Source: Rhodospirillales bacterium 70-18 (lineage in GTDB: Bacteria > Pseudomonadota > Alphaproteobacteria > Acetobacterales > Acetobacteraceae). From it: DNA of 64,000 nt. The position numbers and the translations under genes were made by a program. The DNA lies in assembly GCA_001899585.1 (NCBI GenBank), contig MKWE01000021.1, positions 2,388 to 66,387 on the forward strand, read 5' to 3'. The notes below the pieces were generated by a model. It was not told the origin of the DNA. It worked only from the letters and a program-made list of their open reading frames with translations, and searched no databases. Of this stretch, positions 7,623 to 59,526 are shown in pieces (position 1 is the stretch's first letter; every line of letters starts with the position of its first letter).

Positions 7623-9051
7623 GGCTCGCCTGCGTCACAAACTTCGTATTCAGGTAAGCCTCGATCGCCTCAAGCCCGCCCTCGGACCCGTAGCCGGAAT
7701 CCTTGATGCCGCCGAACGGCACTTCCGGCAGCGCCAGCCCGTGGTGGTTGATCGACATCATGCCCGCCTCCACCCGCGCCGCGATGGCGTTGGCGGTCTT
7801 CACCGAGCGGGTATAGGCGTAGGAAGCCAGCCCGAACGGCAGCCGGTTGGCTTCCTCCACCACGTCGTCGAAGCTTTTGAACGGCACCATCAGCGCCAGC
7901 GGGCCGAACGGCTCCTCGTTCATCACCCGCATGTCGCGGTTGAGGTTGGTCAGCACCGTCGGCTCGAAGAAATTGCCCTTGTTGCCGATGCGCTTGCCGC
8001 CGGTCTTCACCTCGGCGCCCTTCTGCACGGCGTCGGCGATGAAGCCCTCCATCGCGCTCACCCGGCGCGGGTTGGCCAGCGGCCCCATGGTGCTGCCGGC
8101 CTCCTGGCCGTCGCCGACCTTGATCTTCTCGGCCAGCGCCACGAAGCGGCCGACGAAATCGTCGAACACCTTCTCCTGCACCAGGAAGCGGGTCGGCGAC
8201 ACGCACACCTGGCCGGCGTTGCGGAACTTGTTGGCCGCCAGGATCTTGCTGGCCACCTCAAGGTCGGCGTCGTCGAACACGATGGCCGGCGCGTGGCCGC
8301 CCAGCTCCATGGTCACCCGCTTCATGTGCAGCCCGGCCAGCGCCGCCAGCTGCTTGCCGACCACGGTGGAGCCGGTGAACGAGATCTTGCGGATCACCGG
8401 ATGCGGGATGAGGTATTCGGAAATCTCGGCGGGCACCCCGAACACCAGGTTCACCACGCCCGCCGGCACGCCGGCATCGGCATAGGCGCGCACCAGTTCG
8501 GCGCAGCTCGCCGGTGTCTCCTCCGGCCCCTTCAGGATCACCGAGCACCCGGCCGCCAGCGCCGCCGAAATCTTGCGCACCGCCTGGTTGATCGGGAAGT
8601 TCCACGGCGTGAAGCAGGCCACCGGCCCCACCGGCTCCTTGATCACCAGCTGGTACACCCCGTCGGCGCGCGCCGGGATGACGCGGCCATAGGCGCGCTT
8701 GGCCTCCTCGGCGAACCAGTCGATCACGTCGCTGGCGACGCCGATCTCGCCCTTCGCCTCGGCCAGCGGCTTGCCCTGCTCCTGGGTCATCAGCCGGGCG
8801 ATGTCGTCGGCGCGGGTGCGGATCAGGTCGGCGGCCTTGCGCATGATCTTGGCGCGGTCATAGGCGGACATCTTGCGCCACACCGCGAAGCCCTTCTCGG
8901 CGGCGGCCAGCGCGCGGTCCAGGTCGGGGATTTCGGCATGCGCCACGGTGCCCAGCTTGTCGCCGGTCGCGGGGTTGATCACGGTCAGCACCTTGCCGGC
9001 GGCACTCGGCCCCCAGGCGCCGTCGATGAACAGCGATACGTCGGAATACAT
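7618..9051 (-). CDS. NAD(P)-dependent aldehyde dehydrogenase (succinate-semialdehyde / 2,5-dioxovalerate dehydrogenase-like)
   Basis: Start reset to [13 protein letters not shown] (ATG at 9051). ALDH motifs [16 protein letters not shown] and EEPFGP are present. Confidence 0.88.
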
Positions 9052-28257: not shown

Positions 28258-28271
28258 TTGATCCTGGTCAA
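28258..28271. promoter_or_regulatory. FNR/FixK-type box candidate (TTGATCCTGGTCAA)
   Basis: 9 of 10 matches to TTGAT-N4-ATCAA, centred about 87 bp upstream of the SDR start codon. Confidence 0.35.
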
Positions 28272-44620: not shown

Positions 44621-45001
44621 TTAGCGTCGCGCCCCACCGCCGGCGCCGCCGCCCGACCCCATACCGCCCCCCGGCCCCATGCCGCCGCCGATGGCCGGCG
44701 GTGCGTCGGGCAGGGTGATGCCGCGCTGCCGCGCCCGCTCCTGCATCGCCTGGTGGTTCTCCGCGCGGATGCGGTTGCGCTCCTCGGCGGTGCGCGCGGT
44801 GCGCATGCGGGTGCGGTAGGTGTTGCGCTCGGCGGGCGTCATCAGCTGGCTGCCGTAGATCTGCTCCTCCGTCTGGGTCTGGGTTCGTGTCTGGGTCTGG
44901 GTCTGGGTCTGGGTCTGGGTCTGGGTTTGCGCCAGGACTCCGGGGGCGGCCATCGGCAGCGCGAGGGCGCCGAGCAGAATGCCGCGCGTCAACAACTTCA
45001 T
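44621..45001 (-). CDS. small secreted protein with a (TQ)n tract and a Gly/Met-rich tail (function unknown)
   Basis: AGGAG RBS. Signal peptide MKLLTRGILLGALALPMAAPGVLA/Q, then QTQTQTQTQTQTQTRTQTQT, then LMTPAERNTYRTRMRTARTAEERNRIRAENHQAMQERARQRGITLP, then GGGMGPGGGMGSGGG. Confidence 0.75.
   Translation of the reverse strand: MKLLTRGILLGALALPMAAPGVLAQTQTQTQTQTQTQTRTQTQTEEQIYGSQLMTPAERNTYRTRMRTARTAEERNRIRAENHQAMQERARQRGITLPDAPPAIGGGMGPGGGMGSGGGAGGGARR
44870..44929. repeat. hexanucleotide microsatellite (GTCTGG)n, about 10 units, 8 perfect
   Basis: Read directly. Encodes the TQ dipeptide tract on the minus strand. Confidence 0.9.
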
Positions 45002-45101
45002 GTCAGGCTCCTGTGAAAGCATCGGCTACGGCCGCCGTGAGAGCGGGGCGCGTCAGCCTCGAACGCGATGGCAGTTATTCCGCGGATCGCACGATCGCGC
45101 T

Positions 45102-45115
45102 TTGATCTGGATCAT
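45102..45115. promoter_or_regulatory. FNR/FixK-type box TTGATCTGGATCAT
   Basis: 9 of 10 matches to TTGAT-N4-ATCAA, with the same half-sites as the box at 55480. Lies in the divergent spacer between the TQ-protein gene (ATG 45001) and the first GT2 gene (ATG 45202). Confidence 0.55.
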
Positions 45116-45201
45116 CGCGGCCAGACGGCATGGGGCCTTGCGCGGAGGTCCGGAGTTGCGCAAACACTCCGGAGGGCCGTTACAGGGCCGGCGGGACCGC
45201 C

Positions 45202-46458
45202 ATGCGGCATGCGGGGAGCGCACGAATTGAGTTGCAGGATGCGACAGCGGCGGCCGCGGCATTGACCGCCGGGCAGCCCGGGACCGTGCTGGTGGACACG
45301 CGCGATGCCGCCCCGCGCGGGCTGTCGGTGATCGTGCCGATGTTCGGCACCGCGGGCTATGTCCGGGCCTGCCTGGACTCCGTCATCGCCGCCGGCAGCG
45401 GCGACATCGAACTGGTGATCGTCGATGACGGCAGCCCCGATGACTGCGCACAGGTCGCCCGCGACTGGATCGCGCGCAGCGGCGCCGCCGCGGTGCTGGT
45501 GGCCCGGCCGAATGGCGGCCTGTCGGCGGCGCGCAACACCGGCCTGCTGCATGCCCGTGGCGACTACCTCACCTTCCTGGACAGCGACGACCTGTTCGAC
45601 GGCGCGACCTATCGCCGCATGCTCGGCCTGGGCCGGGCGCACGGAGCCGACCTGGTGTTCGCCCGTGCCGTCTGCATGGATAGCCAGACCCAGAGCCTCT
45701 CGGCGTTTCCGGGCTGGGCGGTCTGGTGGGCCATCATGGGCGACCGGCCGATGCGGCGGACCACGCTGGCCCGCGAACCACGGCTGATGGGGCTGGAACC
45801 CAGCGCCACCACGCGGCTGTACCGGGCGGCGTTCGCCCGGCGGATCGGGCTGGCATTCCCGGAAGGACTGACATTCGAGGACCTGCCGGCGCATGTGCGC
45901 AGCGTCGCGCGGGCGGGCTGCATCTGCCTGCTGGGCGAGACCGGCCTGCAGTACCGGGTCGGGCGGCCGGGGCAGATCACCGCCACGCGCGGCAGCGGGC
46001 GGCAGGACAGCCTGGCGACCGCCGACATGGCGATCGGCGAGGCGCTGGCCGCGCGGCTCGGCCTGGATGCCGGCGCCTGCGCCTATGGCGGCATCGCGCG
46101 CCTGCTGTTCTGGTGCGCGCAGCACGTGGCGCGCGACGAGCGCCCGGCCTTCCTGGCGCGGGCGGCCGAGGTTCTGCGCCGCAGCCCGCCGGGCTGGGCG
46201 ACCGGCTATGCCTTCCGTTTCGCGCCGGACGAGACGGATCGCATGGCAGCGCTGGCGTTCGCGCGGGCAGACATCGTGCTGCTCGCCGAGATGGCCGAAG
46301 GGGCGGCGCCCGGGCTGCTGCGCCTCGCGGCCCGCGCCGGCCAACCGGGCATGCGCCGCCCGTTCGTGCTGCGCTGCCGTGCGGCGGCGCGCGGCTGGGC
46401 CGGGGCGGCGTGGCGCGAGGTCCGGTCTGGCCGGTTGCCGTGGCGCGGCCGATGCTGA
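45202..46458 (+). CDS. glycosyltransferase family 2 (module A, gene 1)
   Basis: LSVIVPMFG...ELVIVDDGSPDD...NGGLSAARNTGL...FLDSDD. The start at 45202 is tentative within track ORF 45130..46458. Confidence 0.82.
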   Translation: MRHAGSARIELQDATAAAAALTAGQPGTVLVDTRDAAPRGLSVIVPMFGTAGYVRACLDSVIAAGSGDIELVIVDDGSPDDCAQVARDWIARSGAAAVLVARPNGGLSAARNTGLLHARGDYLTFLDSDDLFDGATYRRMLGLGRAHGADLVFARAVCMDSQTQSLSAFPGWAVWWAIMGDRPMRRTTLAREPRLMGLEPSATTRLYRAAFARRIGLAFPEGLTFEDLPAHVRSVARAGCICLLGETGLQYRVGRPGQITATRGSGRQDSLATADMAIGEALAARLGLDAGACAYGGIARLLFWCAQHVARDERPAFLARAAEVLRRSPPGWATGYAFRFAPDETDRMAALAFARADIVLLAEMAEGAAPGLLRLAARAGQPGMRRPFVLRCRAAARGWAGAAWREVRSGRLPWRGRC

Positions 46459-52903: not shown

Positions 52904-54523
52904 TCAGAACTGCGAACCGAGACGGAAATACACCTCGTTGCGATCATAGCGGGCCAGCGTGACATTGGAATCCCGCAGCGTGTACCGATAATCCACGCCC
53001 AGCGTCACCTTCGGCGTCAACCGGTAGCGCAGCCCCACGGACATGTCGGCGTCGTTGTCCACCCGCGTCGCCTGAATGAAATCGCTACGGCCCCAGGCCA
53101 CGCGGGCGATGCCGGTCAGGTCCTGCGTCAGGCGCTGCTCCACCCGCCCGCCGACCACCGTGTAGATATAGCCCGGGCTGCCGGAGAGCGTCGTCTCCTC
53201 CATCGAGCGGTCGGTATAGAGGATCAGCGCGGTGCCGGAGGTGGCCTGCCACCGCAGGCTGCCATCGAAGCTCGGCGTGGTGGTGGTCTTGAACCGGGAA
53301 TCCTCGGCGTTCCGGCTCATCACGCCGACCGAGAAATCGCCCCGCACGCTGGTGGAGATGCGGAACAGCGCGCCGGCGCTGACGCGGTAACCGTCGGAGC
53401 TGCGGGCATAGCCGAAATCGTCGTACCGGCTGTTGTAGCGGCGGATATCGCCCAGCAGTTCCACGAACGGCCGGAACGCCGGATTCGCCTCGTAGCGGAC
53501 CAGCGTACCGAAGGTATAGCGCGTCCGGTTGCGATCCTGGTTGTTGATGATGCCGTTGGCGCCATCGACATTGCTGAAGGTGAGGTGCTCGATCGCGCCG
53601 CCCAGCCGGATCGAGAAATCACCGTAGCGGTGGATCACGCCGGCATAGCCGTTGCTTTCCATATATGGCGTGGGCGTGATGCCGTTCACCGCGTCGGGCG
53701 AGGAGCGGTCCTCGTGGCTGGCGATCGCGGTGGCGCCGAGCAGGATCTGCGTCTGCTGGCTGGCGTCGATCCGGCCCTCGATGTTGGCGTTCCAGTCCAC
53801 CGTGTTCTCATGCGGCGAGCGGGCATAGCCGGTGAGGTCGGTCTGCACCTCGGCGGTCAGCGAATGCCGCTCCCAGTTCGACTCCACGCTCAGCTTGGGC
53901 GAGATCGTTCCCAGCCAGTCGCTGCGGCGGCTGGTCTTGGTGGCGTAGATGTTGTCGTCGAATATCAGCGCGGACTGGATGTCGGGGTAGATGGTGAACG
54001 ACCCCACGCGGTAGCCGGGACCGCCCAGTTGCGGCGCGCCGGGCGGGGCCAGCGTGGTCTGCGCCGGGGCAGGCGGCAGCGGCCGCACGTCGGCGGCGGC
54101 CATGCGGCCAAGCTCGCTCGCCACCGCCTGGCGCACCGCCTGCGCGCTGGCCGGGGGGGCCGCGGCAGTGATACGGTCGGTGATGCCGCGATAGACCGGC
54201 ACGCTGGCGCCGATGAAGCCGCTGACCGGCGCGCCGGCGACCCGCGCCAGGGCGGCGGCGCGCGCCGGGGTGGAAGCCAGCGCCGGGTTGGCGCGCAGCA
54301 CGTCGTCCAGCGCGCGCAGCAGCGCCGCCGGCCCGTCGGCCGACGCGGTGGTGAGCTGCCGCTCCACCCCGGCATCAACGGGCTGGCCCTGCCCGTAGGC
54401 CGGCGCCAGCGTCGCTACCGCCGCGGCAACCCCGGTGCACACCGCCAGCGCCCGCAGGGCATTGGCGCCGGCGCGACCGGCTTTTCGATCGCAGGGAGTC
54501 GATTTCGTCTTGTAAGCACTCAT
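52904..54523 (-). CDS. outer-membrane beta-barrel protein (putative beta-barrel porin-2 type seen in polysaccharide loci)
   Basis: 539 aa. Signal peptide, an Ala/Pro-rich N-terminal region, then alternating-residue beta-strand patterns, ending ...YFRLGSQF with a terminal aromatic residue. Confidence 0.72.
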   Translation of the reverse strand: MSAYKTKSTPCDRKAGRAGANALRALAVCTGVAAAVATLAPAYGQGQPVDAGVERQLTTASADGPAALLRALDDVLRANPALASTPARAAALARVAGAPVSGFIGASVPVYRGITDRITAAAPPASAQAVRQAVASELGRMAAADVRPLPPAPAQTTLAPPGAPQLGGPGYRVGSFTIYPDIQSALIFDDNIYATKTSRRSDWLGTISPKLSVESNWERHSLTAEVQTDLTGYARSPHENTVDWNANIEGRIDASQQTQILLGATAIASHEDRSSPDAVNGITPTPYMESNGYAGVIHRYGDFSIRLGGAIEHLTFSNVDGANGIINNQDRNRTRYTFGTLVRYEANPAFRPFVELLGDIRRYNSRYDDFGYARSSDGYRVSAGALFRISTSVRGDFSVGVMSRNAEDSRFKTTTTPSFDGSLRWQATSGTALILYTDRSMEETTLSGSPGYIYTVVGGRVEQRLTQDLTGIARVAWGRSDFIQATRVDNDADMSVGLRYRLTPKVTLGVDYRYTLRDSNVTLARYDRNEVYFRLGSQF

Positions 54524-54575: not shown

Positions 54576-55358
54576 ATGTCAAGAACCAATAGACCCGCCG
54601 TGCGGCCGGCGCGAGTGCTGCCGGCCGTTCCGCCGCGCGATTGCGCCCTGTGCGGCGTGCGCCAGCTTGCGCTGTTCCAGTCATTTCCGCCCGACGTGCT
54701 GGGGCGCCTGAGCGTGCTGCGGCGCGGCGTGCGCATGGTGCCGGCCGGCGGGCAGATCGTGCCGCCCGGCCAGCCAGCCGCCGAGGTGTTCACCGTGTTC
54801 CGCGGCTGGGCCTTCAGTTACCGGCTGACCCACGAGGGGCGCCGCCAGATCCTGGACTTCCACCTGCCCGGCGACCTGATCGGCGCGGAGTTCCTCGCCG
54901 CCGCCCCCACCGGCGCCGGGGCCGACGCGCTGACCGCGGTGTCGCTCTGCGCGTTCGACGCCGCGCTCCTGATGCAGGCGGCGGCCGACATGCCGCCGCT
55001 GGCCGCGGCACTCACCTGGATGGTGGCGCGCGAGGAGGCGGTGCTGGCCGAACGCCTGACCGCCGTGGGCCGGCGCAGCGCCGCCGACCGTCTGGGCCAT
55101 CTGCTGCTGGAGATGTGGACGCGCCAGCGCCTGCGCGAGGGCGAGGATGGCGCGGAGTGTCGCTTCCCGCTGACCAACCAGCATATGGCCGACGTGCTGG
55201 GGCTCAGCCCGGAGCATGTCAGCCGCTCGCTGGCGCAATGGCGCCACCGGCAGCTTGCCTTCGTGGACAGCGGCCGCCTGCGCCTGCCGGACGCGGCCCA
55301 ACTGGCCGAGCTGTGCGACTGGACCCCGGGCTACCTGCATCCGCGGCCTATCCTCTAG
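54576..55358 (+). CDS. Crp/Fnr family transcriptional regulator (FNR/FixK-type recognition helix)
   Basis: Start reset to MSRTNRP at 54576. cNMP-like beta-roll. HTH ...MADVLGLSPEHVSRSLAQW carries the E--SR motif. The N-terminus has C-A-L-C but lacks the third N-terminal FNR cysteine. Confidence 0.85.
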   Translation: MSRTNRPAVRPARVLPAVPPRDCALCGVRQLALFQSFPPDVLGRLSVLRRGVRMVPAGGQIVPPGQPAAEVFTVFRGWAFSYRLTHEGRRQILDFHLPGDLIGAEFLAAAPTGAGADALTAVSLCAFDAALLMQAAADMPPLAAALTWMVAREEAVLAERLTAVGRRSAADRLGHLLLEMWTRQRLREGEDGAECRFPLTNQHMADVLGLSPEHVSRSLAQWRHRQLAFVDSGRLRLPDAAQLAELCDWTPGYLHPRPIL

Positions 55359-55479: not shown

Positions 55480-55493
55480 TTGATTTAGATCAT
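55480..55493 (+). promoter_or_regulatory. FNR/FixK-type box TTGATTTAGATCAT with class-II-like geometry
   Basis: 9 of 10 matches to TTGAT-N4-ATCAA. GATTAT at 55517..55522 lies about 33 bp from the box centre, as for a -41.5 activator site. Lies 100 bp upstream of the ATG at 55593. Confidence 0.6.
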
Positions 55494-55592
55494 GGCGACG
55501 TGACCATGAAACACCCGATTATGCTTCCAACAGAGCGGCAAAGTTTTGGCTTCGCCGTCACCATATGAATACGACTCGCCAGTAGGTAATCA

Positions 55593-56054
55593 ATGTTACC
55601 GCATCGCGACGCCCGACGCCCGATCCACCGCCTCGCCGCCATGGCGCTCGTCCTGACGGCCGGAATCGGGGGCACGGCGCACGGCAGCACACCGCCCCTC
55701 ACCGCTGCCACGTGGTGCGCCGACTACCGGCCGGGCGCGCTGGGCGCGCGGCAGCGATTGGAGGGCGAGAACCTGACACGGTTGCAGGCGACCCAGGCGT
55801 TCCTGGCGCCCGGCTTCGCCGCCGGACAATCCCGGACCGGGATCGCCATGCTGGCGGACTACCAGGAGGAGATGGACCGGCCGCACCCCGACCGTGAGGC
55901 GGCGGCCGCCTATCTGGCCACCGCCAGCACGGTGCACATCACGCTCGACGTGGTTGGCATGGTCAACCGCACGCTGTGCGTGGCGGCCGGGCAGGCGACG
56001 GCGCAGGCAATCGCCACCGCGGCCGAGGCGGCGCGGGCCGAGATGGCGCGCTGA
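55593..56054 (+). CDS. hypothetical secreted protein (153 aa)
   Basis: N-terminal signal-like RRPIHRLAAMALVLTAGIGGTAHG, G/C-rich third positions, and a stop 2 nt before the next ATG. No recognisable family. Confidence 0.65.
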   Translation: MLPHRDARRPIHRLAAMALVLTAGIGGTAHGSTPPLTAATWCADYRPGALGARQRLEGENLTRLQATQAFLAPGFAAGQSRTGIAMLADYQEEMDRPHPDREAAAAYLATASTVHITLDVVGMVNRTLCVAAGQATAQAIATAAEAARAEMAR

Positions 56055-56056
56055 GC

Positions 56057-56680
56057 ATGGTCGACAAGCAAGGGATGCAGCAGATGGATGGGTTTCCGAC
56101 ACGCACCGCGGCACGGCGAACCAGTCTGACGCGGCGTGGCCTTGCCGCCACGCTGGCCGGCGGCTTGGCGACAATCCTGCTCGGCGGCGTCGCCATGGCC
56201 CAGGGGCACACCTCGGGCGGCGGCACCGACTCCGGGCACGGTTCCGGCGGCGGCGGTTCCGGTGGCGGAACCGACTCCGGGCACAGCTCCGGCGGTGGCA
56301 GTTCCGGCGGCGGTGACGAAGGCAGCGGCGGGCATACCTCCGGTGGCGGTGACGAAGGCGGCCGTAAGGGCGCCGGTCGCGGCCCACAGCAGCGCGCGGT
56401 CCGCCATCGTGCCCGCACCGGCCAAACCCTGGGCGGCGGCGAGTCCGGCGGCGGCCATAGCGGCGGCGGCCATGGCGGTGGCGGCCATGGCGGTGGCGGC
56501 CATGGCGAAGGCGAGGAAAATGAAGGCGGCACCGATACGGCGGGCACCACCCCGGGCGCCGCGCCCGCCATCACCGGCCTGAGCGAAGGCTCGGTGTCTG
56601 GCGGCGCTACCGGGGCCGAGCACTTCGTCCATGACAGCCCCAGCTATTGGGGCGCGGACGGCAAGGTGCTCCGCCGCTGA
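56057..56680 (+). CDS. Tat-signal Gly/His/Ser-rich low-complexity secreted protein (hypothetical)
   Basis: TRRGLAATLAGGLATILLGGVAMA/QG is a twin-arginine-like signal. Then GGGTDSGH(G/S)SGGG x2, GGHTSGGGDEG x2 and GGGHGGGGHGGGGHG. This frame has the best G/C third-position bias of the overlapping frames. Confidence 0.6.
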   Translation: MVDKQGMQQMDGFPTRTAARRTSLTRRGLAATLAGGLATILLGGVAMAQGHTSGGGTDSGHGSGGGGSGGGTDSGHSSGGGSSGGGDEGSGGHTSGGGDEGGRKGAGRGPQQRAVRHRARTGQTLGGGESGGGHSGGGHGGGGHGGGGHGEGEENEGGTDTAGTTPGAAPAITGLSEGSVSGGATGAEHFVHDSPSYWGADGKVLRR

Positions 56681-56813
56681 CGAGATCGCTGCCGCATATC
56701 GGCCCCTGAACGACCGGTCCGACGGCGGCGGGCGTACTGCGGAGTGCTGAACGCTGCGTCCGCAGCCGTTCCGCGTTCCGGCTACAAAGGTTCAACCCGA
56801 GGAGAACTTCCAA

Positions 56814-57701
56814 ATGACATCGATCAACACCCCCCGCCCCGCCTTGCGCAAGATCCTCAACGGGTCGGTCGCGCTTGGCATGGCGCTTGCTTTCGCGGCC
56901 GCCCCGCTCCCCGCAGCGACCGGCCTCGGCGGCGCCGCATTCGCCCAGGGCCAGGGCCAGGGCCAGGGTCAGGGTCAGGGCAAAGGTCAGGGCCAGGGCA
57001 CTGTCCGTCAGCCCGGCGCCGGTGGCGGTGCCACCTCGGGTGGCCAGATGGGCAAGGGCGGCAGCAGCGGCACCGGCAGCGGCACCACCGAAGGTGAGAC
57101 CGACTCCGACAAGAAAGGCCCGCAATTCGGCGGTGGCACCAACACCCGCAAGCCCGCGCCGGGCACCAGCGGCGGCAAGCCGGTCTGGGCGCAGGAAGGC
57201 ATTCCCGCGGTCGAGCTGGGCCGCCTGAGCGTCGCCCGCGCCCCGGCCCATGTGATCGAGAAGGCGGCGGCCGAGGCCCTCTCCAACTGGACCACCATGG
57301 GCACCACCGTGCTGACGCTGGCCGCCGAAGGGCAGCCGACGCTGACCATGACCGTGGCGCAGCTCTACTCCCTGCCCGCGCTCCAGTTCGCGAACATCGT
57401 GATGACCTACTATCCCTCGCTCGTTCGGATCGACTCGCCGCTGGAGAATCTCGGCCTGCTGCAGATCCTCGGCAAGACCGGCACCTCGCCGCTCCCCGGG
57501 GTCACGCCGGCCAGCAACATCGACCTCGCCGCGATCTTCCTCGCGTCGGCGTCGGACAAGACCCTGGCGATCAGCGTCGATACCGTGATCGCCATGAACA
57601 CGCTGCTCGGCCTGCCGTCGATGACGGTGGAGCAGGCGACCCAGCTGGCGACCGATGCCGAAGCGGTGCGCCTGGCCATCCTGATCGGCCACGACGGCTG
57701 A
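56814..57701 (+). CDS. secreted protein with a (GQ)n tract, a Gly/Ser/Thr-rich linker and a roughly 170-aa C-terminal domain of unknown function
   Basis: GAGGAG RBS. Signal peptide ...LGGAAFA/QGQGQGQGQGQGKGQGQG. The C-terminal domain (...VELGRLSVARAPAHVIEKAAAEAL...) is not recognised. A rho-independent terminator follows. Confidence 0.75.
   Translation: MTSINTPRPALRKILNGSVALGMALAFAAAPLPAATGLGGAAFAQGQGQGQGQGQGKGQGQGTVRQPGAGGGATSGGQMGKGGSSGTGSGTTEGETDSDKKGPQFGGGTNTRKPAPGTSGGKPVWAQEGIPAVELGRLSVARAPAHVIEKAAAEALSNWTTMGTTVLTLAAEGQPTLTMTVAQLYSLPALQFANIVMTYYPSLVRIDSPLENLGLLQILGKTGTSPLPGVTPASNIDLAAIFLASASDKTLAISVDTVIAMNTLLGLPSMTVEQATQLATDAEAVRLAILIGHDG
56946..56999. repeat. hexanucleotide microsatellite (CAGGGY)n, 9 units
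   Basis: Read directly. Encodes the GQ dipeptide tract. Confidence 0.9.
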
Positions 57702-57748
57702 TCCGGCGGCGCCCGGCCGGCGCGCAGACGGCCCGGGCGCCACGCGAG

Positions 57749-57779
57749 AGGCCGCTCCCTTCGGGGGGCGGCCTTTTTC
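57749..57779 (+). terminator. rho-independent terminator
   Basis: AGGCCGC-TCCCTTCGGGG-GCGGCCT followed by TTTTT. Confidence 0.8.
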
Positions 57780-57821: not shown

Positions 57822-58681
57822 TCATCCGCGGTAATGCTGGTGCCGGCGCAGCCGCGCCGCCAGGCTGTCGCGCGGGCCGGTGAGCAGGCTGGCCGTCCAC
57901 AGCCCGCCCGCCGTCAGCACGATCGCCGGGCCGGCGGGGATGTTGGCGTGGTAGGACAGCAGCAGCCCGCACACCGAGGACAGCAGCGCCAGCGCCACCG
58001 CGGCGCGCACCTGCCCGGCCAGTTCGGCGGCCCAGTGGCGGGCGGCGACCGCCGGCAGCATCATCAGGCCGATCGACATCAGCGTGCCCAGCGCCGCGAA
58101 GCCGCCGACCACGCACAGCACCACCAGCGCCATGAACGCCAGGTGCCAGGCGCCGCCGCGCCCGCCGACCGCCTGCATGAAGCCGGGGTCGAAGCTCTCC
58201 AGGATCAGCGGCCGCCAGATCACCGCCAGCCCCGGCAGCGCGATGCTGGCGACGCCGGCCATCAGCAGCAGCGCGGTGTTGTCCACCGCCAGCACGCTGC
58301 CGAACAGCAGATGCCCAAGGTCGATGCCGCGCGTGGCCGAGACGATGGCCACGCCCCCGGCCAGCGCGATCAGGTAGACGCCGGCAAGCTGGCTGTCCTC
58401 CCGCCCGCCGGTGGCCCGCGCCAGCCAGCCGGCCAGCAGCGCCACCGCCAACCCGGCCAGGAAGCCGCCGAACCCCATCGCCCACAGCGACAGCCCGCCG
58501 AACAGCGCCCCCAGCGCGATGCCGGGCAGGATGCCGTGTTGCAGCACGTCGCTGGTCAGGCTCATCCGCCGCAGCACCAGCAACACGCCGAGCGGCGGCC
58601 CGGCCAGCGACAGCGCGACGCAGCCGGCCAGCGCCCGGCGCATGAAGGCCATGGCGAAGGGTTCGATCAGCAGGGCGTGGA

Positions 58682-58685
<4 letters not shown>
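57822..58685 (-). CDS. znuB: metal (zinc-type) ABC transporter permease
   Basis: Start reset to MIHALLIEPFAMAFMRRAL at 58685. ABC-3 family pattern with 8-9 helices. ATGA overlap with the upstream ATPase gene. Confidence 0.8.
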
Positions 58686-59424
<739 letters not shown>

Positions 59425-59428
<4 letters not shown>

Positions 59429-59526
59429 ATCGCCCACCACACGCCGAGCCAGACGAGGGCGACCAGCACGAGCGCCAGCGCCAGCCGCGCGCCAAGCCCG
59501 GAAGCCAGGGAAAGGGGGTCCTGCAT
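59425..59526 (-). CDS. unannotated 33-aa single-pass membrane ORF translationally coupled to znuC (putative)
   Basis: MQDPLSLASGLGARLALALVLVALVWLGVWWAI. 29 of 33 third positions are G/C. Its stop overlaps the znuC start (ATATGA). No SD is present, and the ATG lies 1-2 nt from the Zur-like box. Too short for the ORF track. Confidence 0.45.

Follow-up and report, generated by a model that had tools for sequence, protein, structure and literature searches.

A conserved cassette of three predicted exported proteins, linked to outer-membrane barrel genes and preceded by an FNR/FixK-type box

In class II promoters of the FNR/FixK type, known from FNR of Escherichia coli, FixK/FixK2 of rhizobia and FnrL of Rhodobacter, the palindromic box TTGAT-N4-ATCAA precedes a weak -10 element by one helical turn, a -35 element is absent and different species share the position. 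We find the same arrangement in a 64,000-nucleotide (nt) stretch of DNA from Rhodospirillales bacterium 70-18 (GenBank assembly GCA_001899585.1, contig MKWE01000021.1, positions 2,388 to 66,387 of the forward strand; hereafter the window), where it precedes a cassette of three genes, g1, g2 and g3, and where a gene of the Crp/FNR family, encoding an E-x-x-S-R recognition helix, is a close neighbour. While the FNR/FixK regulons are known for respiratory or haem-synthesis genes, the genes here are predicted to encode uncharacterised envelope proteins. The cassette is conserved in Proteobacteria and keeps company with genes for outer-membrane barrels. Our preferred reading, which we consider quite possible without calling it probable, is that g1-g2-g3 form the exported half of an envelope module that also includes a barrel and is turned on by an activator of the FNR/FixK type, most likely at low oxygen.

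Three further groups of described systems invite comparison. In the curli (CsgG with CsgA/B/E/F) and Fap (FapF with FapA-E) systems, as here, small exported proteins are encoded beside a pore gene or divergently from it; parts of their sequences are Gly/Gln-rich and of low complexity, and two of the proteins are paralogous. We found no sequence or fold relationship to either system, however; here the pore is a BBP2_2 and/or an 8-stranded barrel, helical globular domains instead of amyloid repeats are predicted for the conserved regions, and one partner is predicted to use twin-arginine translocation (Tat). The barrel gene of the window, bbp, can in turn be set beside the BBP2_2 barrels of EpsL/PEP-CTERM loci: it is a clear PF10082 member and stands beside glycosyltransferase genes, but its subfamily differs, having an N-terminal helical region of its own, failing the TIGR03016/EpsL cut-offs and accompanying g1-g3 and not polysaccharide genes. 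Finally, g2, with its GGGH(S/G)GGG repeats and 5-7% His, resembles the disordered His/Gly metal-binding segments of other proteins (the prion octarepeat PHGGGWGQ, Hpn, the His stretch of HypB, the His-rich loop of ZnuA), but the likeness is compositional only, without homology, and the g3 tails are mostly not His-rich. Searches of the literature on BBP2_2 (PF10082/DUF2320), Tat-dependent His/Gly-rich proteins and FixK-linked Gly-rich outer-membrane proteins found nothing relevant. The elements of the locus in the window are the following.

52904-54523, - strand: bbp, an outer-membrane BBP2_2 barrel of 539 amino acids (aa); Pfam PF10082, E = 1e-103
54576-55358, + strand: local Crp/FNR-family regulator, called from 54576 with the open reading frame (ORF) open from 54540; HTH_Crp_2 3e-14, cNMP_binding 3e-9
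55480-55493, no strand assigned: FNR/FixK-type box TTGATttagATCAT, 9 of 10 consensus positions
55517-55522, + strand: -10-like hexamer GATTAT, 23 nt after the box, class II spacing
55593-56054, + strand: g1, predicted exported protein of 153 aa with a signal peptide, a five-helix domain of ~112 aa and two invariant Cys
56057-56680, + strand: g2, 207 aa, predicted twin-arginine signal, mostly low-complexity; 39% Gly and 7% His in the mature protein, two conserved motifs
56216-56507, + strand: tandem DNA repeats of 45-nt and 15-nt units (tracts at 56216-56313 and 56432-56507), encoding the GGG(T/S)DSGH and GGGH repeats of g2
56799-56804, + strand: ribosome-binding site GAGGAG of g3, 9 nt before the ATG
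56814-57701, + strand: g3, predicted exported protein of 295 aa with a signal, a Gly-rich tail, an invariant motif and a helical C-terminal domain
56945-56999, + strand: hexanucleotide repeat CCAGGG x 9.2, encoding the (QG)9 tract of g3
57746-57779, + strand: rho-independent terminator with a 14-bp stem, a UUCG loop and a U5 tail

The three genes of the cassette (55593-57701) are co-directional and closely spaced, with a low-GC, promoter-like stretch before them and a single strong terminator after them (free energy -36.3 kcal/mol; z = -4.95 against shuffles), and they are predicted to form a single operon. The initial annotation of this DNA had read it as such an operon of secreted proteins, with an FNR-type box of class II spacing ahead and a clean rho-independent terminator at the end; it had further described a g2 that starts 2 nt after the g1 stop and in which a twin-arginine-like signal is followed by Gly/His/Ser repeats, and a g3 with a GAGGAG ribosome-binding site, a signal peptide, a (GQ)9 tract, a Gly-rich linker and a C-terminal domain. 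All of these sequence features are borne out by the details given below, with operon status and export standing as predictions. The possibility that the opposite-strand ORFs are the true genes is not favoured: the GC content at third codon positions (GC3) is 0.90 in g1, 0.78 in g2, where it is depressed because of the Gly codons, and 0.895 in g3, and the long antisense ORFs across the cassette lack this signature of the sense frames. In comparison with an orthologous cassette (locus L005), whose g3 is 68% identical to that of the window, the ratio of nonsynonymous to synonymous substitution rates (dN/dS) is 0.20 for g1, 0.40 for the g2 C-terminus (64 aligned codons) and 0.26 for the g3 domain. 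By these two measures, all three frames are real and under purifying selection.

The cassette is widely distributed. It was recovered on 20 contigs, and a scan of reference genomes, one per species, counted 180 carriers, found in the Alphaproteobacteria among Acidocella, Roseomonas/Neoroseomonas and Elioraea, in numerous Rhodobacterales (Yoonia, Jannaschia, Sulfitobacter) and in the Rhizobiales Hoeflea, Ciceribacter and Oricola, and elsewhere in Burkholderiales (Pandoraea, Bordetella, Polaromonas), gammaproteobacterial metagenome-assembled genomes (MAGs) and Thiogranum. A search for carriage of the cassette on plasmids gave no match. The block g1-g2-g3 is kept in at least 22 loci, with the layout bbp (- strand) followed by g1, g2 and g3 (+ strand) retained despite differing outer flanks.

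The claim that the three proteins belong to no recognisable family stood, though it was incomplete. Searches of g1-g3 against Pfam and NCBIfam with E-values up to 1 returned nothing usable, and profile searches of the Protein Data Bank (PDB) with alignments of g3, g1 and bbp, and with the g2 sequence alone, gave no significant match, the best E-values for the g3 and g1 domains being 0.45 and 0.08. The profile searches and the structure modelling of g1 and g3 (AlphaFold2 with Foldseek), which the initial annotation had named as checks, thus agree in finding no characterised family or fold. The proteins are not orphans, however: as far as homology searches can tell, they are conserved but unannotated families, and g1 and g3 are paralogues. 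An early view of g1 as an orphan, which arose when a word-index search matched g1 alone, was overturned by the neighbours of g3 homologues, among which orthologues of both g1 and g2 were recognised in L005 and then in numerous further loci, and by the profile search.

The family is largest for g3. The word-index search gave 655 matches, every one named 'hypothetical protein', and an exhaustive profile search with the g3 domain found 530 representatives of 50%-identity clusters at E <=1e-3, 78 of them at E <=1e-30, spanning the Alpha-, Beta- and Gammaproteobacteria; nearly all representatives are 230-340 aa long and carry the domain at the C-terminus. The signal of g3 ends in AFA/QG, with the A-x-A at least 90% conserved in the family, and is followed by a tail of about 75-80 residues rich in Gly, Gln, Ser and Thr, in which the AlphaFold2 confidence score (pLDDT) is mostly below 50. 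The repeat tract within it reads (QG)6-KG-(QG)2; P0001, a protein 99% identical to g3, is one QG unit shorter, and such length polymorphism among near-identical genomes is consistent with slippage at CCAGGG. Across the family the tails are composed mainly of Gly, Ser, Gln and Thr, with 34% Gly and 3% His at the median and no His in the window. The C-terminal domain of ~160-175 aa is helical, and residues ~140-295 are modelled with pLDDT above 90 as nine helices and one hairpin; a Foldseek search of the model against the PDB gave no fold match (best E 1.7, TM-scores <=0.31). About 30 positions are invariant in the family, many of them polar, and the signature of the domain runs GGxPVWAxEGIPxVELGRLxVARxP, ...IDSPLENL..., ...GSASDKTIP(I/V)(S/T)xDTV... 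and ...AEAVRxAIxxGH. Remote relatives of the domain are found in P0292 (765 aa), P0295 (793 aa) and P0294 (451 aa): the first two, in which no Pfam domain was recognised, begin with signals of the lipoprotein type and contain an enlarged g3 domain twice, and the last has a GGGHDSG-rich tail. In the locus of P0295 (L090 10001-13996), the gene is followed by one for a 509-aa lipoprotein without a Pfam domain, and neither a barrel nor an FNR box is present. The two long homologues, P0292 and P0295, gave no functional lead.

The g1 protein begins with a basic n-region and a hydrophobic stretch, LAAMALVLTAGIGG, followed by TAHG/S. Its domain carries two invariant Cys, C42 and C129, and the pair argues for a periplasmic, disulfide-bonded protein. 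In a profile-profile comparison of clean alignments with hhalign, the g1 family matched the g3 domain family over the last ~56 residues with 95% probability and E = 3.4e-8, and a hidden Markov model (HMM) built from g1 C-termini only gave direct matches to g3 proteins in many loci. The Ala-rich composition of the proteins does not account for this, as the N-terminal region of the barrel, used as a compositional control, scored below 1% against both families. On this profile evidence g1 is paralogous to the g3 domain, in shortened form. AlphaFold2 models g1 as five helices with a mean pLDDT of 84.6, and the order of the helices suggests that g1 corresponds to the g3 domain minus a central insertion; against the PDB, Foldseek found no fold match for the g1 model (best E 3.9, TM-scores <=0.31). 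The merging of g1 with g3 had also appeared in a naive HMM iteration and was retained after the retest with clean alignments and the compositional control, whereas the merging of g2 with g1/g3 in the same kind of iteration was discarded as an artefact of Gly-rich composition. The idea that the g1/g3 domain occurs a third time, in the N-terminal region of bbp, was likewise rejected, the hhalign probability being the one below 1%.

The second gene, g2, has its ATG at 56057, 2 nt past the g1 stop; alternative in-frame ATGs lie at 56075 and 56084, the latter with AAGGG 9 nt upstream. Its signal, LTRRGLAATLAGG...AMA/QG, is succeeded by Gly/His/Ser repeats. The twin arginine is present in 20/20 full-length homologues, mostly as RRRLL, and with its weakly hydrophobic h-region and A-x-A site g2 is a predicted Tat substrate; all three proteins thus have the export signals first ascribed to them. 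In at least 22 loci, g1 and g3 have a g2 homologue between them; the homologues share Gly/His/Glu/Ser repeats, with 5% His at the family median, and two motifs. The basic motif, RAVRHRxRTGxTLGGGE as conserved in the window, has the family form G(R/K)TPxxRAxRHRxRTGRTLGGGE, and the C-terminal motif, GAEHFVHDSPSYWGADGKVLRR, the family form GPIGGxxGGEHF(V/I)HxGxGxWGxDxKVLR. The Burkholderiales have the g1 domain fused to a g2-like Gly/His tail that contains an RYWGGW motif, and this fusion argues that g2 and g1 are functionally linked. One homologue, P0084 (454 aa), has a g2-like N-terminal part (RHRRRTGRTLGGGE ... GGEHFVHHSP) joined to a g3 domain and diverges near the C-terminus; it is probably a frameshift or an assembly artefact but could be a g2-g3 fusion. 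An N-terminal X-X-His motif of the Cu/Ni-binding ATCUN (amino-terminal copper and nickel) type in mature g2 (QGH...) occurred in the window and L005 only, and the candidate was dropped. At the nucleotide level, an Rfam scan of the window gave two matches, both sub-threshold. One of them, Prion_pknot at 56470-56500 (+; 27.6 bits against a gathering score of 39), arises because the GGGH repeats of g2 use the GGC/GGT/CAT codon pattern of the prion octarepeat and is not an RNA element.

We surveyed the neighbours of the cassette by clustering the ORFs of ~80 non-redundant loci, and outer-membrane barrels were the sole recurrent ones. Homologues of bbp stand beside g3 homologues in 44 of the ~80 loci. 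The bbp protein consists of a signal peptide, a conserved helical N-terminal region of ~100 aa, a Pro-rich linker and the BBP2_2 barrel, and it matches PF10082 with 347.6 bits (cut-off 23.7) over profile positions 6-377 of 378. The arrangement varies among groups. In Acetobacteraceae and Rhodospirillales bbp is divergent from g1; in Burkholderiales it lies on the same strand directly upstream, in the order bbp-g3-[Gly/His tail + g1 domain]-[tail + g1 domain]; and in Rhodobacterales and Rhizobiales the gene for a small OMP_b-brl barrel of eight strands comes instead either before or after g3, which is present in one or two tandem copies. The g3 homologues of a Hyphomicrobiales MAG and of gammaproteobacterial MAGs have beside them a single ORF of 832-949 aa with both OMP_b-brl and BBP2_2 domains (L092 7189-9687 on the - strand, L039 1471-4086, L052 639-3329 and L081 2478-5327; the Pfam confirmation covers L039 and L092). 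Such a protein, joining an OmpA-like 8-stranded barrel to BBP2_2, would be of unusual architecture. Among the two nearest genes on each side in ~73 loci (251 proteins, searched with Pfam), no recurrent theme besides barrels appeared. On the comparative evidence, the functional unit would be larger than three genes and would include bbp as well as, in this genome, the gene for the local FNR-like regulator. In the window, genes for a Zn/Mn-type ATP-binding cassette permease (Pfam ABC-3) and an ATPase lie directly downstream of the cassette (57825-59431, - strand) with no adjacent ZnuA, and the locus of P0295 is likewise near a znuABC set (L090 5098-7661).

The second strand of evidence comes from the promoter region. 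The 234 nt ahead of g1 have 52% GC against 71% for the window, and the box there has the form TTGAT-N4-ATCAT where the consensus is TTGAT-N4-ATCAA; within 64 kb, four sites lie within one mismatch of the FNR consensus, with 0.26 expected. With the -10-like hexamer at class II distance, transcription is predicted to start near 55528-55530, which would place the centre of the box at about -41.5. No full -35/-10 promoter turned up in a simple sigma-70 scan, in keeping with a promoter that depends on an activator. The box is conserved along with the genes. Of 26 related alphaproteobacterial loci, 24 have it between bbp and g1 with at least 9 of 10 positions matched, frequently as a pair; of 80 loci overall, 45 have it ahead of the first gene in the cluster, including Rhodobacterales, Rhizobiales and gammaproteobacterial MAGs; in most loci a TAnnnT-like hexamer follows 22-24 nt past it. 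The promoter windows contain 1.10 boxes per kb, a 26-fold excess over the 0.043 per kb in the remainder of these loci, and the box of the cluster is usually the sole one within ~12 kb. Control of the set by an FNR/FixK-type regulator is apparently conserved in three classes of Proteobacteria.

A regulator gene lies between bbp and g1 in the window and in three Roseomonas-type loci (L033 3619-4404, L037 3630-4481, L041 3516-4424). The encoded proteins have an E-x-x-S/N-R recognition helix, E-x-x-S-R in the window. The local regulator differs from FNR proper in lacking a counterpart of C29 and in falling below every NCBIfam equivalog cut-off, its matches to FixK, FnrL and Fnr included. In an alignment with E. 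coli FNR, Cys of the local regulators correspond to C20, C23 and C122; an Ala stands in place of C29 in all four, leaving the four-Cys cluster incomplete. The loci with a local regulator have a variant right half-site, ATCAT or ATCAG, and not ATCAA, which hints that this regulator has a preferred site of its own.

Taken as the exported half of a barrel-containing module, the cassette could work as follows. An FNR-class regulator, either global or the paralogue encoded between bbp and g1, would bind the TTGAT-N4-ATCAT box and activate a single g1-g2-g3 transcript ending at the 57746-57779 terminator. Sec would carry g1 and g3 across the inner membrane, and Tat would carry g2. Once in the periplasm, g1, a five-helix domain with a disulfide, and g3, with an enlarged version of that domain and a Gly-rich tail of ~80 residues, would act with the barrel, and g2, disordered, rich in Gly, His and Glu and furnished with two docking-type motifs, would join g1, g3 and the barrel. 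The genes with their signals, the conservation of the set, the homology of g1 to g3, the proximity to barrel genes and the conserved box with its spacing are established here; the low-oxygen induction of the cassette, the localisation of its three proteins and their physical association with the barrel we infer. A further idea, that g2 captures divalent metal cations, builds on its GGGH(S/D/E)GGG repeats, its 5-7% His and the EHFVH motif, and we hold it to be rather doubtful.

Several observations weigh against this picture. The box is missing from the scanned interval of the Burkholderiales loci, and boxes of the FNR class are also read by paralogues that respond to nitric oxide, redox state or other signals, so the inducer could be something other than O2. 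Some g3 homologues, for example in Yoonia, stand alone with no adjacent barrel gene, and the database names of the homologues, all of them 'hypothetical protein', offer no help. As for metals, no recurrent metal theme was seen among the 251 flanking genes of the ~73 loci, the adjacency of znuBC-like genes is not conserved in other loci, and the idea is weakened by g3 tails that are only marginally enriched in His, those of the window not at all.

Of the other explanations, two survive best. The barrel could be a dedicated secretion pore and g3, possibly with g1 and g2, the cargo, threaded through it by the Gly-rich tails to reach the surface or the matrix of a low-oxygen biofilm or pellicle, following the logic of curli and Fap. 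The tight linkage of barrel genes to small exported paralogues in divergent or tandem layouts would fit such a pore, as would tails that are long, rich in Gly, Gln and Ser and free of hydrophobic residues, and so would the build of bbp, whose N-terminal periplasmic helical region and Pro-rich linker recur in the layout of FapF; in the window, the barrel also abuts a glycosyltransferase cluster. We nevertheless judge the explanation unlikely. What is conserved in g1 and g3 is modelled with confidence as compact helical domains and not as amyloid repeats, the invariant Cys of g1 suggest a disulfide formed in the periplasm, which would impede transit through a narrow barrel, g2 is predicted to use Tat, and no homology to CsgG, FapF or TpsB was found in the Pfam and PDB profile searches.

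Alternatively, the proteins could be structural or gating accessories of the barrels with no role in metal binding, their domains attaching to the periplasmic face of the barrel or to peptidoglycan and their Gly-rich tails serving as flexible spacers, or as a gel that alters the permeability or stiffness of the envelope at low oxygen. The many invariant polar residues of the g3 domain (W, R, R, E, D, S, N, D, K, T, H), which point to a specific binding site, speak for an accessory of this kind, together with the link to two unrelated barrel types, the ORFs that contain both barrel domains and the makeup of the g3-family tails, mainly Gly/Ser/Gln/Thr and not His. Yet no likeness to known peptidoglycan-binding or porin-plug domains was detected with Pfam or Foldseek, and the His-rich repeats and fixed motifs of g2 would be left unexplained; here too we see only a small chance of its being right.

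Much less credible is a role as an accessory of exopolysaccharide export, although BBP2_2 is annotated with EpsL/PEP-CTERM-type systems, family 2 glycosyltransferase (GT2) genes and a UDP-galactopyranose mutase-like gene adjoin bbp at ~45.1-52.8 kb, bbp weakly matches TIGR03016 and EpsL, and a second FNR-like box, at 45102, lies at the far end of the cluster. Both matches are far below the cut-offs (57.1 against 90.85 bits for TIGR03016 and 22.7 against 275 for EpsL, TIGR03014), GT2 genes made up 4/127 flanking genes in the first batch of nearest neighbours, and in many carriers g3 is alone or next to a small barrel, with polysaccharide genes absent. The C-termini of the three proteins (...AEAARAEMAR, ...WGADGKVLRR and ...LAILIGHDG) have no hydrophobic helix and are not of the PEP-CTERM type. 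That there is no functional unit at all, only chance ORFs of a GC-rich genome or unrelated adjacent genes, hardly deserves consideration: GC-rich DNA does yield long spurious ORFs, and several lie antisense here, but GC3 and dN/dS back the sense frames and not the antisense ones, the block is retained despite different outer flanks, invariant residues and motifs extend across three proteobacterial classes, and a Burkholderiales protein unites a g2-like Gly/His tail with the g1 domain.

If we return to the reading of an FNR/FixK-controlled module with a barrel, a broader proposal can be made, possible but in our view somewhat unlikely: the g1/g3 domain family, g2 and the barrels may together make up a machine of the proteobacterial envelope that has so far gone unrecognised, its fold lacking any solved relative and its FNR/FixK wiring shared by three classes; a new barrel-dependent route of surface display or secretion and a dedicated cation capture for oxygen-limited life are candidate roles. 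FNR/FixK regulons are among the best-studied bacterial responses, and yet the module is unannotated in any source that we searched; it also offers two confidently modelled domains without a solved structural relative. The comparative data define a testable unit consisting of a promoter, three to four genes, invariant residues and cultured carriers, among them Acidocella aminolytica DSM 11237, Neoroseomonas alkaliterrae DSM 25895, Pandoraea cepalis LMG 31106 and Jannaschia faecimaris DSM 100420. If the link to the barrels proves to be physical, the proteins would be a new kind of partner for the outer-membrane barrels of Alphaproteobacteria and the two-barrel ORFs would be explained; if it does not, there would still be three new conserved protein families and a cleaner core of the low-oxygen regulon.

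The remaining FNR-type boxes of the window are found at 7748-7761 and 28258-28271, each with one mismatch, and at 45102-45115. The last of these, TTGATCTGGATCAT, lies ~80 nt from the start of a gene for an exported protein of 133 aa (44621-45022, - strand), which has a signal peptide, a (TQ)9 tract (VLA/QTQTQ...) and a Gly-rich C-terminus and is of low complexity, with no significant Pfam match. The same box also faces a divergent GT2 gene (45130-46455), the start of the glycosyltransferase cluster that reaches bbp.

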